This document shows, in pieces, positions 4,056 to 19,408 of a stretch of DNA of 19,894 bases. Below the pieces are notes generated by a model, which ran no database searches, was not told where the DNA came from, and worked only from the letters and a program-made list of their open reading frames with translations. Location: NCBI GenBank assembly GCA_020344415.1, contig CP070825.1, positions 1,604,533 to 1,624,426 on the forward strand, in the 5' to 3' direction. Position numbers and translations under genes: made by a program. The stretch's first letter is position 1. Each line of letters begins with the position of its first letter. This DNA comes from Candidatus Aminicenantes bacterium. GTDB taxonomy: Bacteria > Acidobacteriota > Aminicenantia > Aminicenantales > Aminicenantaceae.

Positions 4056-7000
4056 TTAGTCTTTTTTTATCTTCTTAGGTGGAAAAATGCGGGGAATATT
4101 GTTCTCGTTCATCAGTTTATTCAGTTTTGGAATATCCGCTTCTATTATCCTGTTTGCTCTCTCAATGAGTGTTTCTAATTCCTCAGAATTTTTGCTTATC
4201 TGTTGAATCTGGCGTTCAGAAGGAGCACCTGTAAATCCTCCAATGGACCTTCCGAGCGTGGACAACTGCCCTCTGATTGAAAAGCGCATTCCTCGCCTGC
4301 CCAATTGCGGATCGCCTAACAACTTGATCCGGATGTCATCAATTTCCTTGGATATAGCCTTAATATGCTCTATAACAGCCTCTGGCACGCCTGATACCTT
4401 TTTTAGAGCTGTATTCTGTTTCTGCATTTCATTTTTAATATTATTTGTGGTCCTGCTCAAAGCTAAAAGAGACGGATTCAACTTATAAATCTTCAAAAGC
4501 GCATCATGCTGTGCTTTCCTCTCTTCAAAGGAAATTTCGATCCTCTTGTCTCCTTCTACCTCAACTGTTTTTGTCATTTCTTGGCCCGCAGCTTTCAGGG
4601 TGACCTGGTATTTTCCGGGGAGAACAAATGGACCTCGGGAGCTGAAGCGTCGATCCGCCTCCCTAGTCACGGGAGGAGGACCATACCTAAGGTTCCAAGC
4701 AATCCGATTGATTCCTTTGTTTTTTGAACCTTTGACTTCCCTTATCATCTGACCAGCGCTATCCTGAACGATTATCTCGACACTATCCTTTGCCTGTTCT
4801 TTCAGATAGTAGCTTATCATGGCACCAAAAGGCGGGTTAGGAGCTACAAAAAATTTGTGACCAAGATTTCCCTTGCGGTTGTAAGGATTAAACATTATCG
4901 CTTTACGGATGTCGAAAAGATAGGCGGGAGAAGCAAGGTTTTCTTTGGTAAGCTGTTCCAAAGGAGTAATATCGTCTAAAATCCAGATGCTCCGGCCATG
5001 GGTACCGAAAATCAAGTCGTTCTCTCGAGGATGGATAGCAATGTCATCAACAGGAACGAGAGGAAAATTTCCTTTAAACTTTATCCAACTTATTCCCCTA
5101 TCAGTCGAGAAGTAGGCGCCTCTTTCAGTACCAATAAAGAGGAGATTGGGATTTCGATGATGCTCGCGGATAACGTTCACAATACTGCCTTTAGGCAGGT
5201 CCCTTGAGATGTCCTTCCAGCTCTCTCCGTAATTGGTTGTCGTGAAGACATAGGCTTTATAATCATCGTTTCTGTGTCCATCCAAAGTCGCATAAGCTGT
5301 CCCTTCCCCAAAGCGTGAAGCAACGACTCTGGTAACATAGGTGTTTTTGGGCACCCCAGGAATCTTGCTTATGACATTTTTCCAAGTTTTGCCGCCATCT
5401 CGAGAAACCTGAAGGTTGCCGTCATCCGTGCCTGCGTACAGAAGGCCTTCCTTGATTGGGGATTCAGAAATTGTAGTGATATCCCCAAAGTAAGAGATTC
5501 CGTCGTGACGGGAGAGGGTCCTCCTATCTGGAAGGACCCCCATGAGGGGGAGCTTTTCTCTATCCTGCTGAGTAGTAAGGTCTATCGAAGCTTCCCATGT
5601 CTCCCCTCTGTCTTTGGATTTAAAAAGTTTGTTTCCACCGTAATAAATAGTGTTGTGATCATGAGGGGAAATCAAAATCGGAGAATTCCAGTTGAATCTG
5701 TAGCTCTCTTTCTCATCCTCTGGCTGAGGCCTGATAGATTTGCTCTCTCCTGTCCTCAAGTCAAGCCTGAAGAGATTCCCATTCTGAGACTCTGCATAGA
5801 TTGTATTATAGTCTGTGGGATCAACCTGGGTATAAAAGCCATCTCCACCGCCGATTCTGAACCAATCTTCGTTTGTAACCCCCAATCGATTCCATGTCGA
5901 AGTCGGACTTCCCCAGCTCCCGTTATCCTGCAGGCCTCCATAAATATAGTATGGGGTGCGCATGTCAAAGCCTATCTCATAAAACTGTCCAAGGGGAAGA
6001 GTGTTAATAAAATCCCAAGTTTTGCCGCGATCGTAAGAAAAATAAATTCCTCCATCCGAGCCAAGAACAATGTTATTGGAGTTTTCAGGATTTATCCACA
6101 TGGCATGATGGTCGCCATGAACCCCTCTCACATAACTTGTATTAAAAGTTTTTCCTCCGTCTTCTGAGACATACATCCGGGCTCCCAGGACCCATATCCT
6201 CTGGTCGTTGTTCGGGTCTATTCGTATCTTGCTGTAATACATAGGGCGAGGATTCGTACTCGACATCTTTTTCCAGGATAAACCCTTGTCCTCAGACCGG
6301 AAGACGCCTCCCCGTCTGTTCTCGATAACTGCATAGACTATACTGGGGTTGCTTCTGAATATATCGATCCCGATGCGACCTGTATCCCCTGCAGGCAACC
6401 CGCTGGTCAGGCGAATCCAGGTCTCCCCTCCATCGGTTGTCTTAAAGAGGCCGCTTCCAGGCCCTCCTCCGTTAAAGCCCCAGCCTCGCCTTCTCCTTTG
6501 ATAAGCTGCCGCATACAGAGTATTTGGATTCTCATGATCCATGGCAACATCCACAAAGCCCGTGTTTTCGTCGATGAACTTCGTATTGACCCACGTCTTG
6601 CCGCCATCTGCTGTTTTAAAAAGGCCTCTTTCCTTGTTCGGACCCCAGAGATGGCCCAAGGCTGCCACATAGACTATGTCCGGGTTTGCGGGATGAATGA
6701 CTAGGCGACCGATATGATGCGTATCTTTTAGTCCCATATTCTTCCACGTCTTCCCTCCATCTGTCGATTTATAGACACCGTTCCCCCATGAAGAACTCTG
6801 GCGATTGTTGGGCTCTCCAGTGCCAACCCATACTATATCAGGATCTGAGGGCGAGACAGTCACATCTCCTATAGTGCTTGTCGGTTGATCATCAAAAATC
6901 GGTTCCCAGGTCACACCGTTGTTGGTCGTCTTCCACACTCCTCCTGAAGCAGTTCCTGCATAGATAATATGTGGCGAACTCTCCACAACAGCAAAGTCAT

Positions 7001-7178
7001 CGATCCGTCCTCCCATGTTTGCAGGACCAATACACCGCCATTTAAGACCATCGAGTACAGCTTCTGTAAGAAGTGGCACAGGTTTCTTCTCTGCCTTTTT
7101 GGCACCGAGGAAGATGCAGAGAACGAAACCAATGCACAAAACAAGTAAAACACGATGCGAAAAGTCTCTTTTTCTCAC
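4056..7178 (-). CDS. BNR/Asp-box repeat protein (sortilin/VPS10-like, GH74/Ycf48-like beta-propeller), N-terminal membrane anchor
   Basis: 1040-aa ORF with at least 10 S/T-x-D-G-G-x-T-W Asp-box motifs (STDGGKTWKN, TADGGKTWVN, TTDGGETWIR, SEDKGLSWKK, SYDRGKTWDF, SKDRGETWEA, SRDGGKTWKN, TTNYGESWKD, STDRGISWIK). N-terminal signal anchor MRKRDFSHRVLLVLCIGFVLCIFLG. The plus-strand antisense ORFs inside it are spurious. Confidence 0.85.
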   Translation of the reverse strand: MRKRDFSHRVLLVLCIGFVLCIFLGAKKAEKKPVPLLTEAVLDGLKWRCIGPANMGGRIDDFAVVESSPHIIYAGTASGGVWKTTNNGVTWEPIFDDQPTSTIGDVTVSPSDPDIVWVGTGEPNNRQSSSWGNGVYKSTDGGKTWKNMGLKDTHHIGRLVIHPANPDIVYVAALGHLWGPNKERGLFKTADGGKTWVNTKFIDENTGFVDVAMDHENPNTLYAAAYQRRRRGWGFNGGGPGSGLFKTTDGGETWIRLTSGLPAGDTGRIGIDIFRSNPSIVYAVIENRRGGVFRSEDKGLSWKKMSSTNPRPMYYSKIRIDPNNDQRIWVLGARMYVSEDGGKTFNTSYVRGVHGDHHAMWINPENSNNIVLGSDGGIYFSYDRGKTWDFINTLPLGQFYEIGFDMRTPYYIYGGLQDNGSWGSPTSTWNRLGVTNEDWFRIGGGDGFYTQVDPTDYNTIYAESQNGNLFRLDLRTGESKSIRPQPEDEKESYRFNWNSPILISPHDHNTIYYGGNKLFKSKDRGETWEASIDLTTQQDREKLPLMGVLPDRRTLSRHDGISYFGDITTISESPIKEGLLYAGTDDGNLQVSRDGGKTWKNVISKIPGVPKNTYVTRVVASRFGEGTAYATLDGHRNDDYKAYVFTTTNYGESWKDISRDLPKGSIVNVIREHHRNPNLLFIGTERGAYFSTDRGISWIKFKGNFPLVPVDDIAIHPRENDLIFGTHGRSIWILDDITPLEQLTKENLASPAYLFDIRKAIMFNPYNRKGNLGHKFFVAPNPPFGAMISYYLKEQAKDSVEIIVQDSAGQMIREVKGSKNKGINRIAWNLRYGPPPVTREADRRFSSRGPFVLPGKYQVTLKAAGQEMTKTVEVEGDKRIEISFEERKAQHDALLKIYKLNPSLLALSRTTNNIKNEMQKQNTALKKVSGVPEAVIEHIKAISKEIDDIRIKLLGDPQLGRRGMRFSIRGQLSTLGRSIGGFTGAPSERQIQQISKNSEELETLIERANRIIEADIPKLNKLMNENNIPRIFPPKKIKKD

Positions 7179-7509: not shown

Positions 7510-8490
7510 ATGAAATTTCTTCTCTTTTCCCTTTCTCTTTTTTATCGCATTGGGTGCCAGGCAAAAAATTTATTTTACAGGAGGAAAATCCTCAGGTCAA
7601 AGAGAGCCCCATTGACTGTAATCAGTATTGGAAACATCTCCTTTGGGGGAACAGAGAAAACCCCCTTAGTCATGAACCTGATGTCTTTCCTTACGACGCA
7701 AGGTTTTAAACCAGCCTTAATCTCTCGAGGGTATAAAGGGAAATGGGAAAAAAAAGGAGGTGTTCTCTCTGACGGGATTAGCCTATTCGGAACTTGGGTT
7801 GATTCAGGTGATGAGCCCTTCATGGTTGCTCAAAATATTCCTCAGGCCGGTGTTTTTATCGGAAAAAACCGCTTAAAATCATGCATTCATGCCAAGGATC
7901 TATCATTCGCGCCTGCTGTCTTGGATGACGGTTTTCAGCATCGCCGCCTTCACAGAGACCTGGATATTGTGCTCTTTGATCCCTCTAAAAAGCCGGCTCT
8001 CAGAGAGCCAGTTTCTTCCCTTAAAAGAGCCCACATCCTGTTGATAAAAAAAGGAGCCTCCACTCAGAAAAAGAAGGAAATTAAAAATATTATTTCCCAA
8101 ACAGCCGCGTTCGAATATGATGTTATCCATGGGGCTTTCTTTAATTTGGAAGGGAAAGAGAGAATTCCAGAAGAAGAACTCAAAGAAAAAAAAGTTCTTG
8201 CATTCTGCGGTATAGCCCGCCCAGAAAAATTCTCCGCTATGCTTCAAGAGAAAGGCCTAAAGATTGTTTCTTTCCTTAAATTTCCTGACCACCATTCTTA
8301 CCGCCCCTCTTCTCTAGAAAAAATTGTGGAAAAATACCAAAAAACAAAAGCTGAGGCATTGATCACAACAGAAAAGGACGCAGTGAAGATTTCAGATTTC
8401 GAAGGTTTCAAAAAAATTCCAGCGTATTACTTAAAGATCGACATCAGGCTCGAAGAAGAATTTTATAATAAAATTCTCTCTTTCTTATGA
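7510..8490 (+). CDS. lpxK: tetraacyldisaccharide 4'-kinase (lipid A biosynthesis)
   Basis: N-terminal hydrophobic anchor followed by the P-loop ISIGNISFGGTEKTP (LpxK signature VGNLTxGGTGKTP), then ISRGYKG and DDGFQH motifs characteristic of LpxK. Length 326 aa. Confidence 0.85.
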   Translation: MKFLLFSLSLFYRIGCQAKNLFYRRKILRSKRAPLTVISIGNISFGGTEKTPLVMNLMSFLTTQGFKPALISRGYKGKWEKKGGVLSDGISLFGTWVDSGDEPFMVAQNIPQAGVFIGKNRLKSCIHAKDLSFAPAVLDDGFQHRRLHRDLDIVLFDPSKKPALREPVSSLKRAHILLIKKGASTQKKKEIKNIISQTAAFEYDVIHGAFFNLEGKERIPEEELKEKKVLAFCGIARPEKFSAMLQEKGLKIVSFLKFPDHHSYRPSSLEKIVEKYQKTKAEALITTEKDAVKISDFEGFKKIPAYYLKIDIRLEEEFYNKILSFL

Positions 8491-8511
8491 GGTAAGAATT
8501 TTCTTAGATAA

Positions 8512-9408
8512 ATGCCTAATATCAAAGAACGATTAGAGTTTCTTATTTTCCAAATAGTGAAGTTCTTCTTCACCCATCCCCCGAGAAGGCTTTGTTTACT
8601 CGCAGGTAGAGTTGTCGGCCTAATCTTCTATTGCTTGGATAAGAAGCATCGCCAGATAGCTTTAAAAAACCTGACCTTGGCATTTGGCACTGAACGCACT
8701 CCTGCAGAGCTTAAAAAGATCGCGCGCGAATCGTTCAAGCATTTCGGCGGCTTCCTTGCCGAAATCATCAAGTTCCCTCGCCTCAAAGAGGAAAAAAAGA
8801 GCAGCCTTTTCCACGTTGAAGGAGAAGAACACTTGTTAGAGGCCTTACAAAAACAAAAAGGCGCCATCCTTTTCTCTGCTCATTATGGAAACTGGGAGAT
8901 TGCTCCGTATATCCTGATAAAAAAAGGAAAAATGAGTGTTGTGGCCCGACCGTTGGACAACAGACTTATGGAAGCTCAGCTCCTCAAGCTCAGAGAGAGC
9001 CTTGGAACAAAGGTCATCTACAAACATCGAGCTACAAAACAAATCCTCCAATCTCTCCGAGAAAAAGAAATGATCGCTCTATTAATCGACCAGAATGTCC
9101 TCCGGAGCCAAGCTATCTTTGTCGACTTTTTTGGCAAAAAGGCAGCCACAACCCCAAGCGTAGCAGCTTTCTTTCTCAGGACAAAGTCGCCACTTCTCCC
9201 TGTCTTCTGCTATCCAACCTCCTCCCATACGTATCAACTCAAAATATTCTCCCCCCTGAAAATCTCCTCAGAAGAAGATCACAACCAAGAGATATTGAAA
9301 ATTACCCAGATATGCACTAAGATTATAGAAGATCAAATTCGAAAAAATCCCAGTCATTGGCTTTGGTTCCATAACAGATGGAAGACACGGCCAGAGGGAG
9401 AAAAATAA
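8512..9408 (+). CDS. lipid A late acyltransferase, LpxL/LpxM (HtrB/MsbB) family
   Basis: 298 aa, with the family HX4D/E acyltransferase motif in SAHYGNWEIAP. It sits 21 nt downstream of lpxK, and rph starts 4 nt after its stop, so operonic with lpxK. Chain-length specificity cannot be told from sequence. Confidence 0.75.
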   Translation: MPNIKERLEFLIFQIVKFFFTHPPRRLCLLAGRVVGLIFYCLDKKHRQIALKNLTLAFGTERTPAELKKIARESFKHFGGFLAEIIKFPRLKEEKKSSLFHVEGEEHLLEALQKQKGAILFSAHYGNWEIAPYILIKKGKMSVVARPLDNRLMEAQLLKLRESLGTKVIYKHRATKQILQSLREKEMIALLIDQNVLRSQAIFVDFFGKKAATTPSVAAFFLRTKSPLLPVFCYPTSSHTYQLKIFSPLKISSEEDHNQEILKITQICTKIIEDQIRKNPSHWLWFHNRWKTRPEGEK

Positions 9409-9412
9409 AATT

Positions 9413-10159
9413 ATGAGAGCTAAAAACCGAGCCCACGATGAATTAAGACCCGTAAAAATTAAACCAGATTACATCGAGTTCGCTGATGGCTCTTCCTATA
9501 TAGAAATCGGCAAGACAAAAGTCATAGCTACTGCTACCGCCGAGGAGAAAGTCCCTCCTTTTTTGAAAAATTCAGGAACTGGCTGGATAACTGCCGAATA
9601 TTCCATGCTTCCTCGATCTACAGAAAAAAGAAATGTTAGAGAAAGGATAACAGGAAGACTGTCGGGACGAAGTCAAGAGATCCAGCGCCTGGTAGGACGA
9701 TCTCTCCGAGCTGTGACAGATCTTAGCCTCTTAGGACAGAGGAGCATCATTCTCGACTGTGATGTCATCCAGGCCGATGGGGGAACAAGGGCAGCCTCAA
9801 TCGCAGCAGGATGTGTCGCCTTGGCTCTTGCATTGAAGAAGATGCTGGATGAAAAGACCATAGAAATCATGCCTCTTAAAAACTTGGTCAGCAGCGTCAG
9901 CGTGGGCATAGTCAATGGAGAATTGCTTCTTGACCTTGATTATAGTGAGGACTCAATAGCAGAAATCGATATGAACGTTGTCGAAACTGACAAAGGACAA
10001 CTTGTAGAAGTCCAGGCATCCGCTGAGAAGAATCCTTTTTCAAAAAAAGAACTGAGCTCTCTCCTGAGCCTAGCTGATAAAGGAATAAAACAACTCATCC
10101 AGATTCAAAGGGATATCCTCAAAAAAAAGAGCATTCTCTTCATGGCTTACGGACAATAA
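9413..10159 (+). CDS. rph: ribonuclease PH
   Basis: Near-colinear with canonical RNase PH: RPVKIKPDY...[73 protein letters not shown]. Length 248 aa. Confidence 0.92.
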
Positions 10160-10172
10160 AAGGAGAAAAACT

Positions 10173-11108
10173 ATGGACCGTTTCCTGGTAACAGGAGGAG
10201 CTGGATTCCTCGGAAGCCATCTCTGTGATTCTCTTCTGGCAAAAGGAGCCGATGTTGTCTGTATCGATAACTTTTTTTCAGGAAATAAGGATAACATCCG
10301 CCATCTTTTCTCTCGCAATTTCTTTGAACTGATCCGACACGATATTATCCATCCTCTCTTTGTGGAGGTAGACAAAATCTATCATCTTGCTTGCCCCGCC
10401 TCTCCGATACACTACCAACTCAATCCAATTAAAACAGTCAAGACGAATGTCATGGGAACTATAAACATGCTTGGATTAGCTAAGAGGATAAAAGCTCGTA
10501 TTCTCCTTGCTTCTTCCTCAGAAGTCTATGGCGATTCTCAAGTCCACCCGCAGCCGGAGAGTTATTGGGGGAATGTCAATCCCATAGGGCTCCGCAGCTG
10601 TTATGATGAAGGGAAAAGAGTGGCAGAAACCCTGATGATGGATTATCATCGCCAGAATAATGTCGACATCAAAATCGCTCGCATTTTCAATACCTACGGT
10701 CCTAGAATGGCCATCGACGACGGCAGAGTAGTCAGCAACTTTATCGTCCAGGCTTTAAAAAAGGAATCCCTTACGGTCTATGGGGATGGGAGCCAAACCC
10801 GCTCCTTTTGTTATGTCTCAGACCTTGTTCATGCTCTCATGACAATGATGGATGCCGATGAATTTTCAGGCCCTGTAAATCTTGGAAATCCAGCTGAGTT
10901 CACAATAATTGAGTTGGCAGAAAAAATCGTCAAGCTTACAAAAAGCTCTTCCAAGATTGTCCATAAACCTCTGCCTTCAGATGATCCTGTGCGAAGATGT
11001 CCTGACATTTCTTTAGCCAACGACAAATTGCACTGGACGCCAAAAATAGACCTGGAAGAAGGTCTGGTCAAGACCATTGATTATTTTAAAGAAAAATTGG
11101 GTCTATAA
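10173..11108 (+). CDS. uxs: UDP-glucuronate decarboxylase (UDP-xylose synthase family SDR)
   Basis: Rossmann [12 protein letters not shown] motif, [27 protein letters not shown], and the catalytic [12 protein letters not shown] block, which is near-identical to UXS1/ArnA-decarboxylase family signatures. 311 aa. AAGGAG RBS 8 nt upstream. Confidence 0.88.
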
Positions 11109-12306: not shown

Positions 12307-13713
12307 ATGTCCCTTGTCTCCCAATTAATTTTAATAGGAATCATACTTGCTGTATTAGCCATAGTTTCTTTTATAATCGCTAAGCAGTACAGAAAAGTGG
12401 GCCCGCATGAAGCCCTCATTATTTCCGGCGGAAGGAAAAAAACAGTCATCGAGCCCGATGGAACAAGAAAGAAAATAGGCTATCGATACCGGCTGGGCGG
12501 GGGGACTTTTGTAATCCCATTTCTGGAAACCGTTGATGTTTTACCCATGGAAGTCATAACGTTGAATGTAAAAACCCCCGAAGTTCTCACTCATGGTGGT
12601 GTTCCTATCTTGGCCGAAGCTACCGCTCAGGTCAAGATAGACTCCAATGATCACGCCATTCGCTTGGCGGCCGAACAATTTCTAGGCCTTGGAAAGGAAG
12701 GCATCCGGGATGTCTCCATGACCATCCTAGAAGGAAAAATGAGAGAGGTCATGGGAGCCATGTCTGTTGAAGAAATTTTCCAAGGAAGACATGAATTTTC
12801 TACAAAAGTTGCCCAAGCTACGCAGAAAGATTTTTCCCTGATGGGCCTGACCATGATGTCCTTTGCCCTTAAAGATATAAGCGATACCCAAGGATATCTA
12901 GATGCCCTCGGAAAACCTCAAATCTCAGCAGCTAAGCGCGACGCTGCAATCGCTGAAGCAGAGACAGAAAAAGAGGCAGTGATTAAATCTTCTGAAGCTA
13001 GAAAAGAAGGGGAAGTTGCCCGACTCGCTTCTGAAGCTCTTATCGCCAAGGCCCAATGGGAAAACGAAGGCAAAAAAGCAGAGTCCCAAGTTGAGGTCAA
13101 CCAGAAAAAAGCCCAAGCGGATTTCTCCTATGAGCTTGAGCGTTTCCGCCTCAGCCAGGAAATAAAAAAAGAGGAATCCAAGGTGAAGCTCATCGAAAAA
13201 GAACAGTCTATTAAAATCGAAGAATTGGAAACGGCCCGCAGAGAGAAGGAACTCGACTCTACCGTTATTAAACCTGCTGAAGCCCGCAAATACCAGATGA
13301 AAGCAGAAGCCGAAGCTGAAGAATACCGCCTCCAATCCGAAGCTAAAGGAAAGTCTGAAGGAATAAAACTTGAAGGGATTGCAGAGGCGGAAAAAGCCAA
13401 GCAAAAAGGAATAGCTGAAGCCGAAGCCATGCTGAAAAAAGCACAAGCTTGGGAAAAGTACAACCAGGCTGCTCTCTTTGAAATGTATCTCAATATCCTT
13501 CCTGAACTGGCTAAGGCAGTCTCAGAACCTCTCTCCAAAGTAGACAAAATAGTAGTTATCGGCGGAGATAAAAGTTTGGGAACTTCAAAGATCACGTCTC
13601 AAGTTGCGGAAACCCTAGCACAGATGCCTGAAGTCGTTAAATCCCTTACAGGTGTCGACCTGAAAAAATATCTGAAAGAAAAACTCTCCCCTGAAGAAAA
13701 AGAAGAAGAGTAA
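12307..13713 (+). CDS. flotillin family protein (SPFH/band-7 domain with long EA-rich coiled-coil), FloT/YuaG-like
   Basis: N-terminal TM helix LILIGIILAVLAIVSFIIA and an SPFH domain. The extended AEAEAE/KAEAEAEEYRL coiled-coil is characteristic of flotillins. Strong AAGGAGG RBS 7 nt upstream. The antisense ORFs 12925..13446 and 13128..13595 are artefacts of the repetitive coiled-coil coding. Confidence 0.85.
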   Translation: MSLVSQLILIGIILAVLAIVSFIIAKQYRKVGPHEALIISGGRKKTVIEPDGTRKKIGYRYRLGGGTFVIPFLETVDVLPMEVITLNVKTPEVLTHGGVPILAEATAQVKIDSNDHAIRLAAEQFLGLGKEGIRDVSMTILEGKMREVMGAMSVEEIFQGRHEFSTKVAQATQKDFSLMGLTMMSFALKDISDTQGYLDALGKPQISAAKRDAAIAEAETEKEAVIKSSEARKEGEVARLASEALIAKAQWENEGKKAESQVEVNQKKAQADFSYELERFRLSQEIKKEESKVKLIEKEQSIKIEELETARREKELDSTVIKPAEARKYQMKAEAEAEEYRLQSEAKGKSEGIKLEGIAEAEKAKQKGIAEAEAMLKKAQAWEKYNQAALFEMYLNILPELAKAVSEPLSKVDKIVVIGGDKSLGTSKITSQVAETLAQMPEVVKSLTGVDLKKYLKEKLSPEEKEEE

Positions 13714-13739: not shown

Positions 13740-16094
13740 ATGGTTTCAGAAAAAGTCAACCAAATCGGCGAATCACCCACCCTTAAGGTAACGGCCAAAG
13801 CCAAGGCTATGAAGGCTGAGGGAATAGATATCGTTGACCTCAGCGTTGGAGAGCCAGATTTTCCAACTCCGGATAACATTAAATCAGCAGGCATAAAAGC
13901 CATCCAGGAAAACTTCACCAAGTACACACAAAATGATGGAATCCCTACCCTTAAAGAGGCAGTCATCCACAGGCTGAAGGAAGATATAGGGCTTGCTTAT
14001 GAAAAGGAAGAAATCATCCTTTCCACTGGCGCCAAGAGCTCCCTCTATCATCTCATCCAGGCTCTGATCAATGAGAGCGAGGAGGTCATCATCCCCTCTC
14101 CCTATTGGGTGACCTACCCTCATGCTGTATCATTGGCAAAAGGAAAATCTGTCATCATCCCAACAAAGGAGGAGAATGGATTTATCTTAAGCGGTGACCA
14201 GCTAAAGTCTGCCATCTCTCCATCCACCAGAGCCTTAATCCTGAACAATCCCTCTAATCCTACGGGAGCAGCTTACCAGAAGCATGAGCAGGAAGCCTTG
14301 GCAGACGTCGTCCTTGAAGAGAATATCTACGTCATTGCTGACGAAATATATGAAAAACTTGTCTATGATGACTTCAAGTTTGTGAGCTTTGCATCACTTG
14401 GAGAGGAAATAAAAAAGAAAACCATCATCATTAACGGCGTCTCAAAAGCCTATTCAATGACTGGGTGGCGAATAGGCTTCGCCGCTGGTCCTGCAGACAT
14501 CATCAATGGCATGGCCAAAATCCAGAGCCACACCACATCCAATCCCTGCTCAATCTCACAAATAGCAAGCCGGGAAGCTTTAGGGGGACCCCAGCATGAA
14601 ATCTCCAGAATGGCATCTGAATTTCAGAGGCGCAGGAATTATGTCCTGATGCGGCTTCAGACCATCCCTAATGTTTCCTGTTTCAAACCGCAGGGAGCTT
14701 TCTATCTCTTTCCCAATTTTTCTCATTACTATGATAAAGAATTCAACAATGTCCAGATTAGAAACTCTTACGGCCTGGCATATTATCTTCTGAAAGAAGC
14801 AAACGTGGCAATTGTTCCCGGAGATGCCTTTGGGGCTGACGATCATATCCGTATATCCTATGCCACTTCTATGGAAAACCTAGAAAAAGGCATAGATAGA
14901 ATCGCGGAGGCTCTCACCCGCCTTAAAACGCCCAAAAAGGTCGTCCGCCTCGCTTTAAATAACACTATAACCCGAGAAAAAAAGCGAGTTCCTGTTGATT
15001 CCACGATCGACGTTAAGATGAGGGATGCTCTTGTAGCTGAGATGGAAAACCATCTCAGCTATGAAAATTACTTCGAATGGAATGCGAACATCAACGGCGT
15101 CATTGTTCAGCTGCGGACGAATGTCTCCCACCTCAACGATTTTTGGATCGAGAATTGGTATCCGGCTCAACTGGAAGCGGCACTGGAACCCCACGGCATC
15201 ATATATGCTGTTGATGGCATAGCAGGTCGAGAATCCCGTGCTTTCTACAACCCAGAAACAAAAACAGGAATTCTCGTCAACACAGACAATTATACTCCTT
15301 TGCGCAGCCTTGCTCTCGGTCTTGTCATGAACGTCTCAGAAAGATTATTTAACGTTCACGCAATCCGTGGGATGTCAGCAGACATTGATTGGAATGGACT
15401 GATCCTCGTCGGACCTAAAGGGACAAAGAAAACCGAGCTGTTCTTCGGCTTGTTCTCAGATGATAGATTCCGTCTCCACTCCAATGATCTCGTTTTTGTC
15501 CGTTTTTCAGGAGGTATAGCCCTGGCTGATTCCTCGGAGAGGAAGCTTTTCATGCCAACGAATACAGTAGAATCTTATCCTCGCTTAGCCTCCCTCTTTG
15601 ATAACAGCAAGTGTGAAAACGTTATTACGCGCAAAGATGACTGCCAGGACGCAGAGTGCCTCCGCCTGGATGACTGCCGCCTCGACCGGGGGTCACCTTA
15701 CTGCTATAAAGCTTCAAAAGACGCCCATGCCATTCTCGACCCATACTGGATTGAGGGAACAGCAATGCATATCAAACGCACTGCACTTCGTTGGATGTTT
15801 ATTCTCCGTTACGACAACGTCTCGCCGCCAGTAGTGGACGTCGAGGTGGAAGATGCCCTGCGCATGCTTGAATCCGGAGAAAGCCTGGGCGTTGCAAGAG
15901 ACCTTACTCCTTCTCAAAGAGAACCCTATTACAACCCCCACCTTCTCACAACAACCCCAGAGCAGATGGAACTTCAGAGGAGTTTTTTCGAGCGCTTCCT
16001 TGAGAACATTTCCTGTTATCTGTTCAACAGCGGAGTCGCCTCTTCTGAGGAAATCAAACGAATTGTGACAGGGGAGAGCAAAACCGAAGAATGA
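13740..16094 (+). CDS. fusion protein: class-I aspartate/aromatic aminotransferase (aa 1-395) + degenerate PEP-carboxykinase(ATP)-family domain (aa ~420-784)
   Basis: The N-terminal domain has GEPDFPTP, NNPSNPTGAAY and the PLP-lysine block SKAYSMTGWRIGF (K236). The C-terminal domain aligns colinearly with PckA and with the next gene: TDNY to GTWYGG; VHAIRG to MHCSA; LILVGPKGTKKTELFFGL to FFGLSGTGKTTLS (kinase-1a); RLHSNDL to RLIGDDEH; SGG to FEGGCYAKT; CENVITRKDD to ALLENVTVREDG. The Mn-binding KK of GEMKKG is absent and the P-loop second Gly is replaced by Lys. The 784-aa frame is continuous with no internal stop. Confidence 0.7.
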   Translation: MVSEKVNQIGESPTLKVTAKAKAMKAEGIDIVDLSVGEPDFPTPDNIKSAGIKAIQENFTKYTQNDGIPTLKEAVIHRLKEDIGLAYEKEEIILSTGAKSSLYHLIQALINESEEVIIPSPYWVTYPHAVSLAKGKSVIIPTKEENGFILSGDQLKSAISPSTRALILNNPSNPTGAAYQKHEQEALADVVLEENIYVIADEIYEKLVYDDFKFVSFASLGEEIKKKTIIINGVSKAYSMTGWRIGFAAGPADIINGMAKIQSHTTSNPCSISQIASREALGGPQHEISRMASEFQRRRNYVLMRLQTIPNVSCFKPQGAFYLFPNFSHYYDKEFNNVQIRNSYGLAYYLLKEANVAIVPGDAFGADDHIRISYATSMENLEKGIDRIAEALTRLKTPKKVVRLALNNTITREKKRVPVDSTIDVKMRDALVAEMENHLSYENYFEWNANINGVIVQLRTNVSHLNDFWIENWYPAQLEAALEPHGIIYAVDGIAGRESRAFYNPETKTGILVNTDNYTPLRSLALGLVMNVSERLFNVHAIRGMSADIDWNGLILVGPKGTKKTELFFGLFSDDRFRLHSNDLVFVRFSGGIALADSSERKLFMPTNTVESYPRLASLFDNSKCENVITRKDDCQDAECLRLDDCRLDRGSPYCYKASKDAHAILDPYWIEGTAMHIKRTALRWMFILRYDNVSPPVVDVEVEDALRMLESGESLGVARDLTPSQREPYYNPHLLTTTPEQMELQRSFFERFLENISCYLFNSGVASSEEIKRIVTGESKTEE

Positions 16095-16121
16095 TAATGC
16101 TATGTAATGTTAATATTCATG

Positions 16122-16190
16122 GATTATTCACGAGTCGAGGTTGCTGCATTATCTACAGAAAGTACCGGCATTTTTTATGAATAATTCAGG
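16122..16190 (+). promoter_or_regulatory. compact copy 2 of the bipartite conserved 5' module (left 16122-16148, 14-bp spacer, right 16163-16190) upstream of the PEPCK-like gene
   Basis: GATTATTCACGAGTCGAGGTTGCTGCA ... TACCGGCATTTTTTATGAATAATTCAGG. It has the same two halves, in the same order and orientation, as copy 1, with the same 12-13 nt distance from the terminal AGG to the ATG. Confidence 0.55.
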
Positions 16191-16202
16191 CATATAAGTA
16201 CA

Positions 16203-18682: not shown

Positions 18683-19408
18683 TCAATCTTCCAGCCCCGA
18701 TTGAATAATTTTTTTCACTTTGTCTATTAATTGCGGAAGGCTGCTGCGGTCGAATCCCTCAACAGGAACAGCACGGTGAAAATTGGCTCTGACTATTCCT
18801 TTCTTAACAAAAAAACTTCCCCTGGGCATAAGTTCGTAGCTTCCCTTTAGGCTCACTGGAACAATAGGGGCCAGGCTAGCAAGCGCTAGGAAAAAGCCGC
18901 CCCTCTTGAACGGCTGAAGCTTACCATCTCGACTCCTGGTTCCTTCAGGGAAAATGAGAAAAGAAAAGCCTTTCTCTTTTATATGTCGAGAGGCCCGATC
19001 TATACTCTCTTTTCCGCCTTTTAGGCGTTTCCGATCCACAGGAATGAAACCTATCTGCCTCATCGCTTGAGCAACAATGGGAATCCTGAAAATTTCTTTT
19101 TTCAGGATGACCCTTACAGATTGCGGGATAATCATAAAAAGTATTGGGCCATCGATAATACTCAGATGGTTAGCCATGAAAACATAGGACGCTTTTTTAT
19201 CTATATTCTCCACTCCGGAAATCTCCAGCCGAATCCCCACTATTTTTTGCCCGAGCCGGATAACCCATTTCCCGATCAAAATGAGCGGTTGGGAGTATCT
19301 CACAAGGTAACAGAAAAGAAGAACTGGAATGAGAAGAATTGCTAAAAGGCCATAGATAAACAAAAGAATAAGAGTTCGCATTCTCGGTTTTTCAAGATTA
19401 TACCACAA
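18683..19408 (-). CDS. plsC: 1-acyl-sn-glycerol-3-phosphate acyltransferase
   Basis: N-terminal TM helix. Acyltransferase motif I is NHLSIIDG (HX4D) and motif III is FPEGTRS. 241 aa. Confidence 0.82.
   Translation of the reverse strand: MWYNLEKPRMRTLILLFIYGLLAILLIPVLLFCYLVRYSQPLILIGKWVIRLGQKIVGIRLEISGVENIDKKASYVFMANHLSIIDGPILFMIIPQSVRVILKKEIFRIPIVAQAMRQIGFIPVDRKRLKGGKESIDRASRHIKEKGFSFLIFPEGTRSRDGKLQPFKRGGFFLALASLAPIVPVSLKGSYELMPRGSFFVKKGIVRANFHRAVPVEGFDRSSLPQLIDKVKKIIQSGLED

Follow-up and report, generated by a model that had tools for sequence, protein, structure and literature searches.

A four-cysteine insert in a degenerate PEPCK-fold domain fused to an aminotransferase in an Aminicenantes genome

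The aminotransferase fusion and its degenerate PEPCK-fold domain

The window analyzed here, the whole stretch of 19,894 nucleotides from contig CP070825.1 of Candidatus Aminicenantes bacterium, contains a single open reading frame (ORF) in which an aminotransferase is fused to a domain with the fold of phosphoenolpyruvate carboxykinase (PEPCK), and it is a cluster of cysteines in this C-terminal domain that is our subject (Table 1). Full-length fusions of 781 to 785 amino acids are found elsewhere (P0121, P0122), and matches to the aminotransferase and to the C-terminal domain abut in frame at ~80 genome loci. The aminotransferase half matches Pfam PF00155 with 254.6 bits (E 2e-75), and the pyridoxal phosphate-lysine motif SKAYSMTGWR can be read in its translation; its top NCBIfam matches are aspartate transaminase (equivalog) models, every one of them under its cut-off, and we therefore only infer its aspartate-type substrate specificity. 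The translated fusion shows no apparent signal peptide, and no ORF that reaches 80 codons lies on the opposite strand over 15612-15704.

Table 1 Coordinates of the fusion gene, its domains and motifs, and the adjoining genes in the window
Feature	Positions	Strand	Basis
Flotillin/Band_7 gene, directly upstream of the fusion across phyla	12307..13713	+	
Aminotransferase::PEPCK-fold fusion, single 784-aa ORF	13740..16094	+	translation
Class I/II aminotransferase domain, residues 30-388, aspartate-aminotransferase-like	13827..14903	+	PF00155
PEPCK-fold domain, residues 401-784, degenerate catalytic motifs, no curated family model	14940..16091	+	
Degenerate P-loop GPKGTKKTE, residues 557-565, aligned with PckA GLSGTGKTT	15408..15434	+	
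C625-E626-N627, ENV motif; E/N align with PckA E311/N312, C625 with Leu310	15612..15620	+	
35-residue segment N627 to H663, carrying the Cys4 unit	15621..15725	+	
Cys4 unit, C635-x4-C640-x5-C646-x8-C655	15642..15704	+	
H663, at substrate-binding R333 of PckA	15726..15728	+	
ORF12, divergent ATP-type PEPCK, no Cys in the aligned segment	16203..18035	+	PF01293, NF006821, PDB alignments

Residues 401-784 gave no Pfam match at E<=1, no NCBIfam match at E<=0.1 and no sequence match in the PDB, and comparison with ORF12, the PEPCK encoded downstream, gave a pairwise BLASTP E-value of 0.97 at best and an hhalign E-value of 0.0034 with a probability of 9.6%. Because direct sequence searches were empty, homology to PEPCK is traced by way of structure and of intermediate relatives. 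The AlphaFold2 model of the domain, built with 61 homologues in the alignment, is confident (predicted local distance difference test, pLDDT, 91.6; predicted template modeling score, pTM, 0.90) and has the two-domain fold of PEPCK, so that the assignment of a pseudo-PEPCK fold in an earlier, sequence-only reading of this DNA was right. The domain is thus a PEPCK by fold, yet it falls outside the PEPCK sequence profiles and lacks the set of PEPCK catalytic residues. It is also not an HPr kinase: the fusion protein has no match to PF07475 (HPr kinase/phosphorylase) in the profile scan, and in comparison with the C-terminal domain of that enzyme and with the HprK-related kinases (TIGR04352/TIGR04355) only the P-loop core aligns, all matches lie far under the curated cut-offs, and the domain here has in addition a PEPCK-type N-terminal part.

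The differences from ATP-PEPCK (PckA; PF01293, TIGR00224; PDB 1ii2, 1aq2) extend beyond the lack of a sequence-model match, and were read from an alignment of the domain, its relatives, ORF12 and E. coli PckA, the reference sequence of the last having been checked to be identical to 1aq2_A. The P-loop does not contain the kinase-1a pattern G-x-x-G-x-G-K-[ST], and its second glycine (G253 in PckA) is replaced by K563, a position that varies between K, R, N, Q and G among Aminicenantes. Around the active site, PckA Y207 is replaced by N517 (with a tyrosine at the next residue, 518), K212 by R522, the Mn2+ ligand K213 by S523, the Mn2+ ligand H232 by R543, D268 by N582 and K288 by P606. Two elements are kept: D583 stands in the place of the Mn2+ ligand D269, and E626/N627, in the place of E311/N312, are invariant across the family. 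Among K213, H232, D269 and R333, only D269 is therefore retained in the domain; the region of R65 did not align. The position equivalent to R333 is arginine in stand-alone relatives and in a Zixibacteria-like clade, and H, Y, Q, A or F in Aminicenantes. The C-terminal adenine-binding element (R449, T455) is missing, in that the domain ends earlier and the aligned columns are gaps. The description of this domain as a degenerate nucleotide-binding domain thus stands, with residues of both the nucleotide and the metal site replaced. A further difference from ATP-PEPCK is the cysteine-bearing insertion, which is absent from PEPCKs.

The cysteine insert and its distribution

Translation of 15612-15704 reads CENVITRKDDCQDAECLRLDDCRLDRGSPYC and confirms cysteines at residues 625, 635, 640, 646 and 655, with the spacing C-x9-C-x4-C-x5-C-x8-C that had been reported for them. 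Five of the eight cysteines in the 784 residues lie inside 31 residues, a density reached in just 5 of 20,000 shuffles of the fusion protein. The segment running from the ENV motif to H663 has 35 residues here and 20 in both ORF12 and E. coli PckA, where it is free of cysteine, so that this is a true insertion of ~15 residues in the hairpin that precedes the R333 strand, as had been supposed. Within the domain model the cysteine region is predicted well (pLDDT 84, 81 and 88 in blocks of 10 residues), whereas the isolated 43-mer of residues 624-666, modeled with an alignment, is predicted poorly (pLDDT 56, pTM 0.24), which argues for an integrated insert and against a free-standing finger. The insert is poor in hydrophobic residues. 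Its best conserved part is the second half, C-[RP]-L-D-x-G-x-P-[YF]-C-[YF], which is kept even where cysteines are lost, suggesting that this loop may have a role of its own, for example as a lid or as a surface for contacts close to the former cleft.

Among 5.8 billion proteins searched, 145 homologues were found, mostly aminotransferase fusions of Aminicenantes/Acidobacteriota, Zixibacteria and Calditrichota. All five cysteines are present in 96 of the 113 homologues that cover the region; C625 alone is missing in seven, C635 and C640 are jointly missing in six, and three (P0049/P0053/P0112) have C640 replaced by histidine, C655 by serine, and a new cysteine three residues further. Where C625 is replaced singly, some homologues that keep the other four cysteines have N, T or L in its place. 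The alignment with homologues that the sequence-only reading proposed as a check of its five cysteines therefore bears it out in part: the cluster is conserved and four of its members vary as a block, but C625 varies separately. Loci that encode a relative number 376 in species-representative genomes, and among the best 80 of these and two further contigs all five cysteines are found in 79 of 82; the 80 are nearly all labeled Aminicenantes, with several labeled 'uncultured Eubacteriales'. A different state is found in the Zixibacteria-like clade, 33 loci of which were obtained from a metagenome scan with a Zixibacteria-type seed. Here the five positions read C625, W635, a gap at 640, C646 and C655, with T, L or N at position 646 in five of the 33, and the clade retains the length of the insert and the PLDLGEPYCYWGS loop despite the joint loss of C635 and C640. 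It shares the degenerate site with the window protein.

The insert is neither unique nor lineage-specific, as had been claimed, and is instead spread over a family that, in a profile search of 1.84 billion representatives, comprises 316 clusters (50% identity) at E<=0.001. Many members are stand-alone proteins of 350-570 amino acids with an intact Walker A motif (IAPTGTGKST), histidine at the H232 position, the motif HSDDW, and arginine at the R333 position. Relatives reach the PEPCK subfamily model NF006821 at E-values of 1e-8 to 1e-14, so that sequence, and not fold alone, ties the family to PEPCK; matches of relatives to HprK models are weak (15-27 bits against a cut-off of 33.3), and the family profile finds HprK in the PDB at E 0.13-0.4. 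Among the members sampled (P0121-P0264), no curated Pfam or NCBIfam model is matched above threshold, and the cysteine cluster thus flags a large PEPCK-fold family that stands outside all curated models.

In a census of 179 family proteins, with the segment anchored by the family hidden Markov model (HMM), the number of cysteines per segment was 0 in 31 proteins, 1 in seven, 2 in four, 3 in nine, 4 in 121 and 5 in seven. Because these counts are bimodal, with 1-3 cysteines in just 20 proteins, the four distal cysteines are gained and lost as a block, along with the extra length. The general pattern is C-x4(8,12)-C-x4..10-C-x8-C; the half-sites C-x4-C and C-x8-C are mostly kept, the linker between the second and third cysteines varies from 4 to 10 residues, and the four distal cysteines are also found in distant stand-alone relatives. 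Three alternative hairpins are distributed over sub-branches of the family, namely a short PEPCK-like one, the Cys4 insert, and a cysteine-free insert of ~50 residues; among relatives with an intact site, P0123, P0125 and P0129 have the short, cysteine-free PEPCK-like hairpin and others have the long cysteine-free helical insert. The C625 position is L, T, V, N or I in the wider family and leucine in PckA and ORF12, and C625 itself, which is separable from the other four, would be a bystander beside the invariant Glu-Asn pair. Since residues in a strand alternate in direction, its side chain probably faces the core.

The co-occurrence of the insert with a degenerate active site in the window protein had been taken to mean that the cysteines are a lineage-specific novelty that replaced the lost PEPCK catalytic center. 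We regard this as hardly credible in light of the census, in which at least 17 relatives combine four or more cysteines with an intact Walker A motif (e.g., P0124, P0133, P0140, P0143, P0145, P0148 and P0153). Among those listed, most also retain histidine at the H232 position, the DD pair and the arginine equivalent to R333, the exceptions being P0122 (arginine at H232, and ND) and P0176, in which the H232 position lies outside coverage. Conversely, two of the four cysteines are gone from the Zixibacteria-like relatives, whose site is degenerate in the same way, and a copy of the domain in the protein P0135 is degenerate yet has no insert. Together these three observations uncouple the insert from catalytic decay, and the proposal that the one replaced the other was rejected. 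The Cys4 module would instead be an accessory, old and optional, in a large PEPCK/HprK-like P-loop family that had not been described before, and the fused, catalytically degenerate branch appears to have inherited this module; as it would predate the decay of the catalytic site, it should not be treated as a 'new active site'.

A predicted structural metal site

Our preferred interpretation, which we consider slightly more likely than not, is that C635, C640, C646 and C655 act as a single unit that binds a metal, most probably zinc in a structural Zn(Cys)4 site. The two half-sites, C-x4-C and C-x8-C, would together ligate one metal, which would hold together the hairpin between the ENV and R333 strands, enlarged here by ~15 residues. 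In PEPCK, R333 is part of the lining of the substrate cleft, and the resulting rigid, acidic and hydrophobic-poor module would therefore stand out at the rim of the former cleft, where it would probably work as a lid or contact surface, and not as a catalytic or replacement center. C625, at the Leu310 position of PckA, would lie outside the metal site and most likely point into the core. The metal site proposed in the sequence-only reading, with zinc or an iron-sulfur (Fe-S) cluster as candidates, is therefore plausible given the block behavior and the exchanges of cysteine for histidine, but as four ligands and a bystander in place of a five-cysteine site. Taken by itself, the cluster is a modest finding, that is, probably a structural metal site.

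In the census, the four candidate ligands are jointly gained and lost with histidine as an allowed substitute, which is the pattern of a structural Zn(Cys)4 site. Histidine replaces cysteine in three groups of relatives, P0049/P0053/P0112, P0172/P0201/P0256 (in the form 'CHVDH') and P0126, and these replacements favor a metal ligand and disfavor a disulfide. A metal-free thiol/disulfide redox switch, with two disulfides or with one disulfide and free thiols, is a highly improbable alternative on this account, since histidine is unfit as a disulfide partner, and also because the fusion is a cytoplasmic aminotransferase protein with no apparent signal peptide. The two short-range pairs, C-x4-C and C-x8-C, could make two local disulfides, and the gene of one stand-alone relative, P0140, adjoins a thioredoxin gene and lies near a DsbA-like gene, but this is the one case of a thioredoxin neighbor in a variety of contexts. 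The state of the Zixibacteria-like clade, with C635 now tryptophan, C640 lost with it, and the loop kept, is what would be expected where a structural metal has been replaced by packing.

There is a precedent for such an exchange in the adenylate kinases: in Gram-positive bacteria their LID has an optional Zn(Cys)4 site of structural type, and in other lineages the LID is kept with non-metal packing in place of the metal. This site would be the nearest functional analogy to the Cys4 insert, as in both cases a P-loop phosphotransferase fold accommodates an optional four-cysteine site (a predicted one here) in a surface or mobile element. The adenylate kinase site differs in being formed by CxxC...CxxC/D knuckles, at another position and in another P-loop fold, whereas the cysteines here are arranged as C-x4-C...C-x8-C and the host domain is apparently non-catalytic.

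Several observations weigh against a structural zinc site. The cysteine unit has none of the paired CxxC/CxxH knuckles of zinc ribbons, and its motif matched no curated zinc or Fe-S signature. The sequence around the unit is very acidic (DDCQDAECLRLDDC), which is unusual near a (Cys)4 site with its net negative charge. The Zixibacteria-like clade retains the insert with two of the four cysteines, or with one in five of the 33 loci, so that a metal is not essential to the insert. Finally, the hosts are anaerobes, in which Fe-S sites are common, and zinc and Fe-S ligation are inseparable by sequence alone.

One important consideration is therefore whether the four cysteines might ligate an Fe-S cluster, either [4Fe-4S] or [2Fe-2S]. 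The domain would in that case sense redox state or oxygen, and modulate either the aminotransferase to which it is fused or the PEPCK of the operon. The block conservation of the four cysteines fits this equally well, the host lineages, Aminicenantes among them, are anaerobes of sediments, some Fe-S sites tolerate exchange of cysteine for histidine, and many family members have a proline right after the third cysteine ('CPLD'), loosely like the C-P of ferredoxins. Compact, irregular cysteine loops can bind clusters, as in endonuclease III (C-x6-C-x2-C-x5-C) and the Rrf2 regulators (C-x5-C-x5-C), and these precedents also favor it. Nevertheless, we consider an Fe-S sensor unlikely. The cysteine unit has no CxxC or CxxCxxC element and no ferredoxin-type CxxCxxC...CP spacing, and no Fe-S family model was matched, although a non-canonical cluster site would still be compatible with these negatives; the linker between the second and third cysteines varies from 4 to 10 residues; and the Zixibacteria-like clade drops two ligands while keeping the insert, the gene neighborhood and the degenerate site. 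The core function of the system can thus do without the site, as one would less expect if the site were a sensor. A more elaborate form of this idea, which we consider quite unlikely, is that a non-canonical Fe-S or other redox-active metal site on a ligand-binding pseudo-PEPCK couples the redox state of the anaerobe to an assembly that converts aspartate through oxaloacetate to phosphoenolpyruvate (PEP), made up of the fusion, PEPCK and sometimes nucleoside diphosphate kinase (NDK), and encoded behind the flotillin gene.

Gene order and the neighboring PEPCK

Downstream of the fusion, ORF12 scores 89.6 bits against Pfam PF01293 and 285 bits against NF006821, under the cut-off of 369 for the latter, and it retains every catalytic residue that was compared with PckA. 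Its C-terminal tail of ~50 residues is rich in Lys, Glu, Pro and Arg (…EKEKPEVPESPAEEERPFYYWESKSRPRRGGFWRSK) and absent from E. coli PckA. The spacer between the two genes, 16095-16202, is 108 nucleotides long and AT-rich, and at many related loci the gap is just 20-45 nucleotides. The order flotillin - fusion - PEPCK - SIS(-) is found at 64 of the 79 Aminicenantes loci with enough downstream sequence, and all 30 judgeable Zixibacteria-like loci have the order fusion - NDK - PEPCK with flotillin upstream. Flotillin is upstream in nearly all loci of the Aminicenantes and the Zixibacteria-like clade that have enough upstream sequence.

The protein P0135 (L084 6001-8700; 899 amino acids) joins a copy of the domain, without insert or cysteines and with a degenerate P-loop, to an ORF12-like PEPCK (NF006821, 416 bits), and can be taken as Rosetta-stone evidence that links the active paralogue with the pseudo-domain. 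Its context is archaeal-looking, with TFIIE-like, V4R and Roadblock/LC7 genes. This fusion and the shared gene order make it very likely that the domain and PEPCK are functionally linked, and raise the possibility that the Cys4 module is the surface on which ORF12 docks in a pseudoenzyme-enzyme pair. Such a role for the module is improbable, as the copy in P0135 has no insert at all, the 30 Zixibacteria-like loci keep PEPCK with one or two of the four cysteines, and PEPCK is not next door at the 15 remaining Aminicenantes loci, 14 of which keep all cysteines, or at another 23 cysteine-intact loci from the metagenome scan. On the same grounds, we rejected the idea that the module tracks the PEPCK neighbor, and the module is not what links the two proteins. 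The arrangement resembles known pairs of pseudoenzyme and enzyme paralogues in that a degenerate paralogue is encoded beside, and once fused to, an apparently active one; it differs from them in that the Cys4 insert is uncorrelated with the presence of the putative partner. Literature searches found nothing relevant on fusions of aminotransferase with HprK or PEPCK, on PEPCK of Aminicenantes, or on PEPCK-like pseudoenzymes.

In one branch of the family, then, a degenerate domain is permanently fused to an aspartate-type aminotransferase, and the undescribed family as a whole, together with the order flotillin - fusion - (NDK) - PEPCK, conserved in at least two phyla, deserves more attention than the cysteines. 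This order suggests an operon that might link a membrane-microdomain scaffold to a route from aspartate through oxaloacetate to PEP. If the fusion and PEPCK work together, they would provide a direct aspartate-to-PEP route that handles the unstable oxaloacetate, and such a route, if true, would matter in uncultured peptide-fermenting sediment bacteria.

A gene for NDK repeatedly adjoins family members (L001 9149-9562; L002 7587-8015; L083 4325-4825; L090-L122). In the Zixibacteria-like clade it separates the fusion from PEPCK, in L001 it follows PEPCK, and it immediately precedes the gene of the Cys4-bearing stand-alone protein P0124. The neighborhoods of the stand-alone relatives P0124, P0133, P0125 and P0140 are varied and indicate no function; the adjacency to NDK alone recurs. 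Elsewhere in the window, the neighboring genes at 7510-11108 and 18683-19408 are envelope-related or housekeeping, and encode LpxK, a lipid A acyltransferase, RNase PH, an NAD-dependent epimerase, a GT2 glycosyltransferase, a SIS-domain protein and an acyltransferase; further upstream are ComEC (117-2270) and a BNR/sortilin-repeat protein (4056-7178, minus strand).

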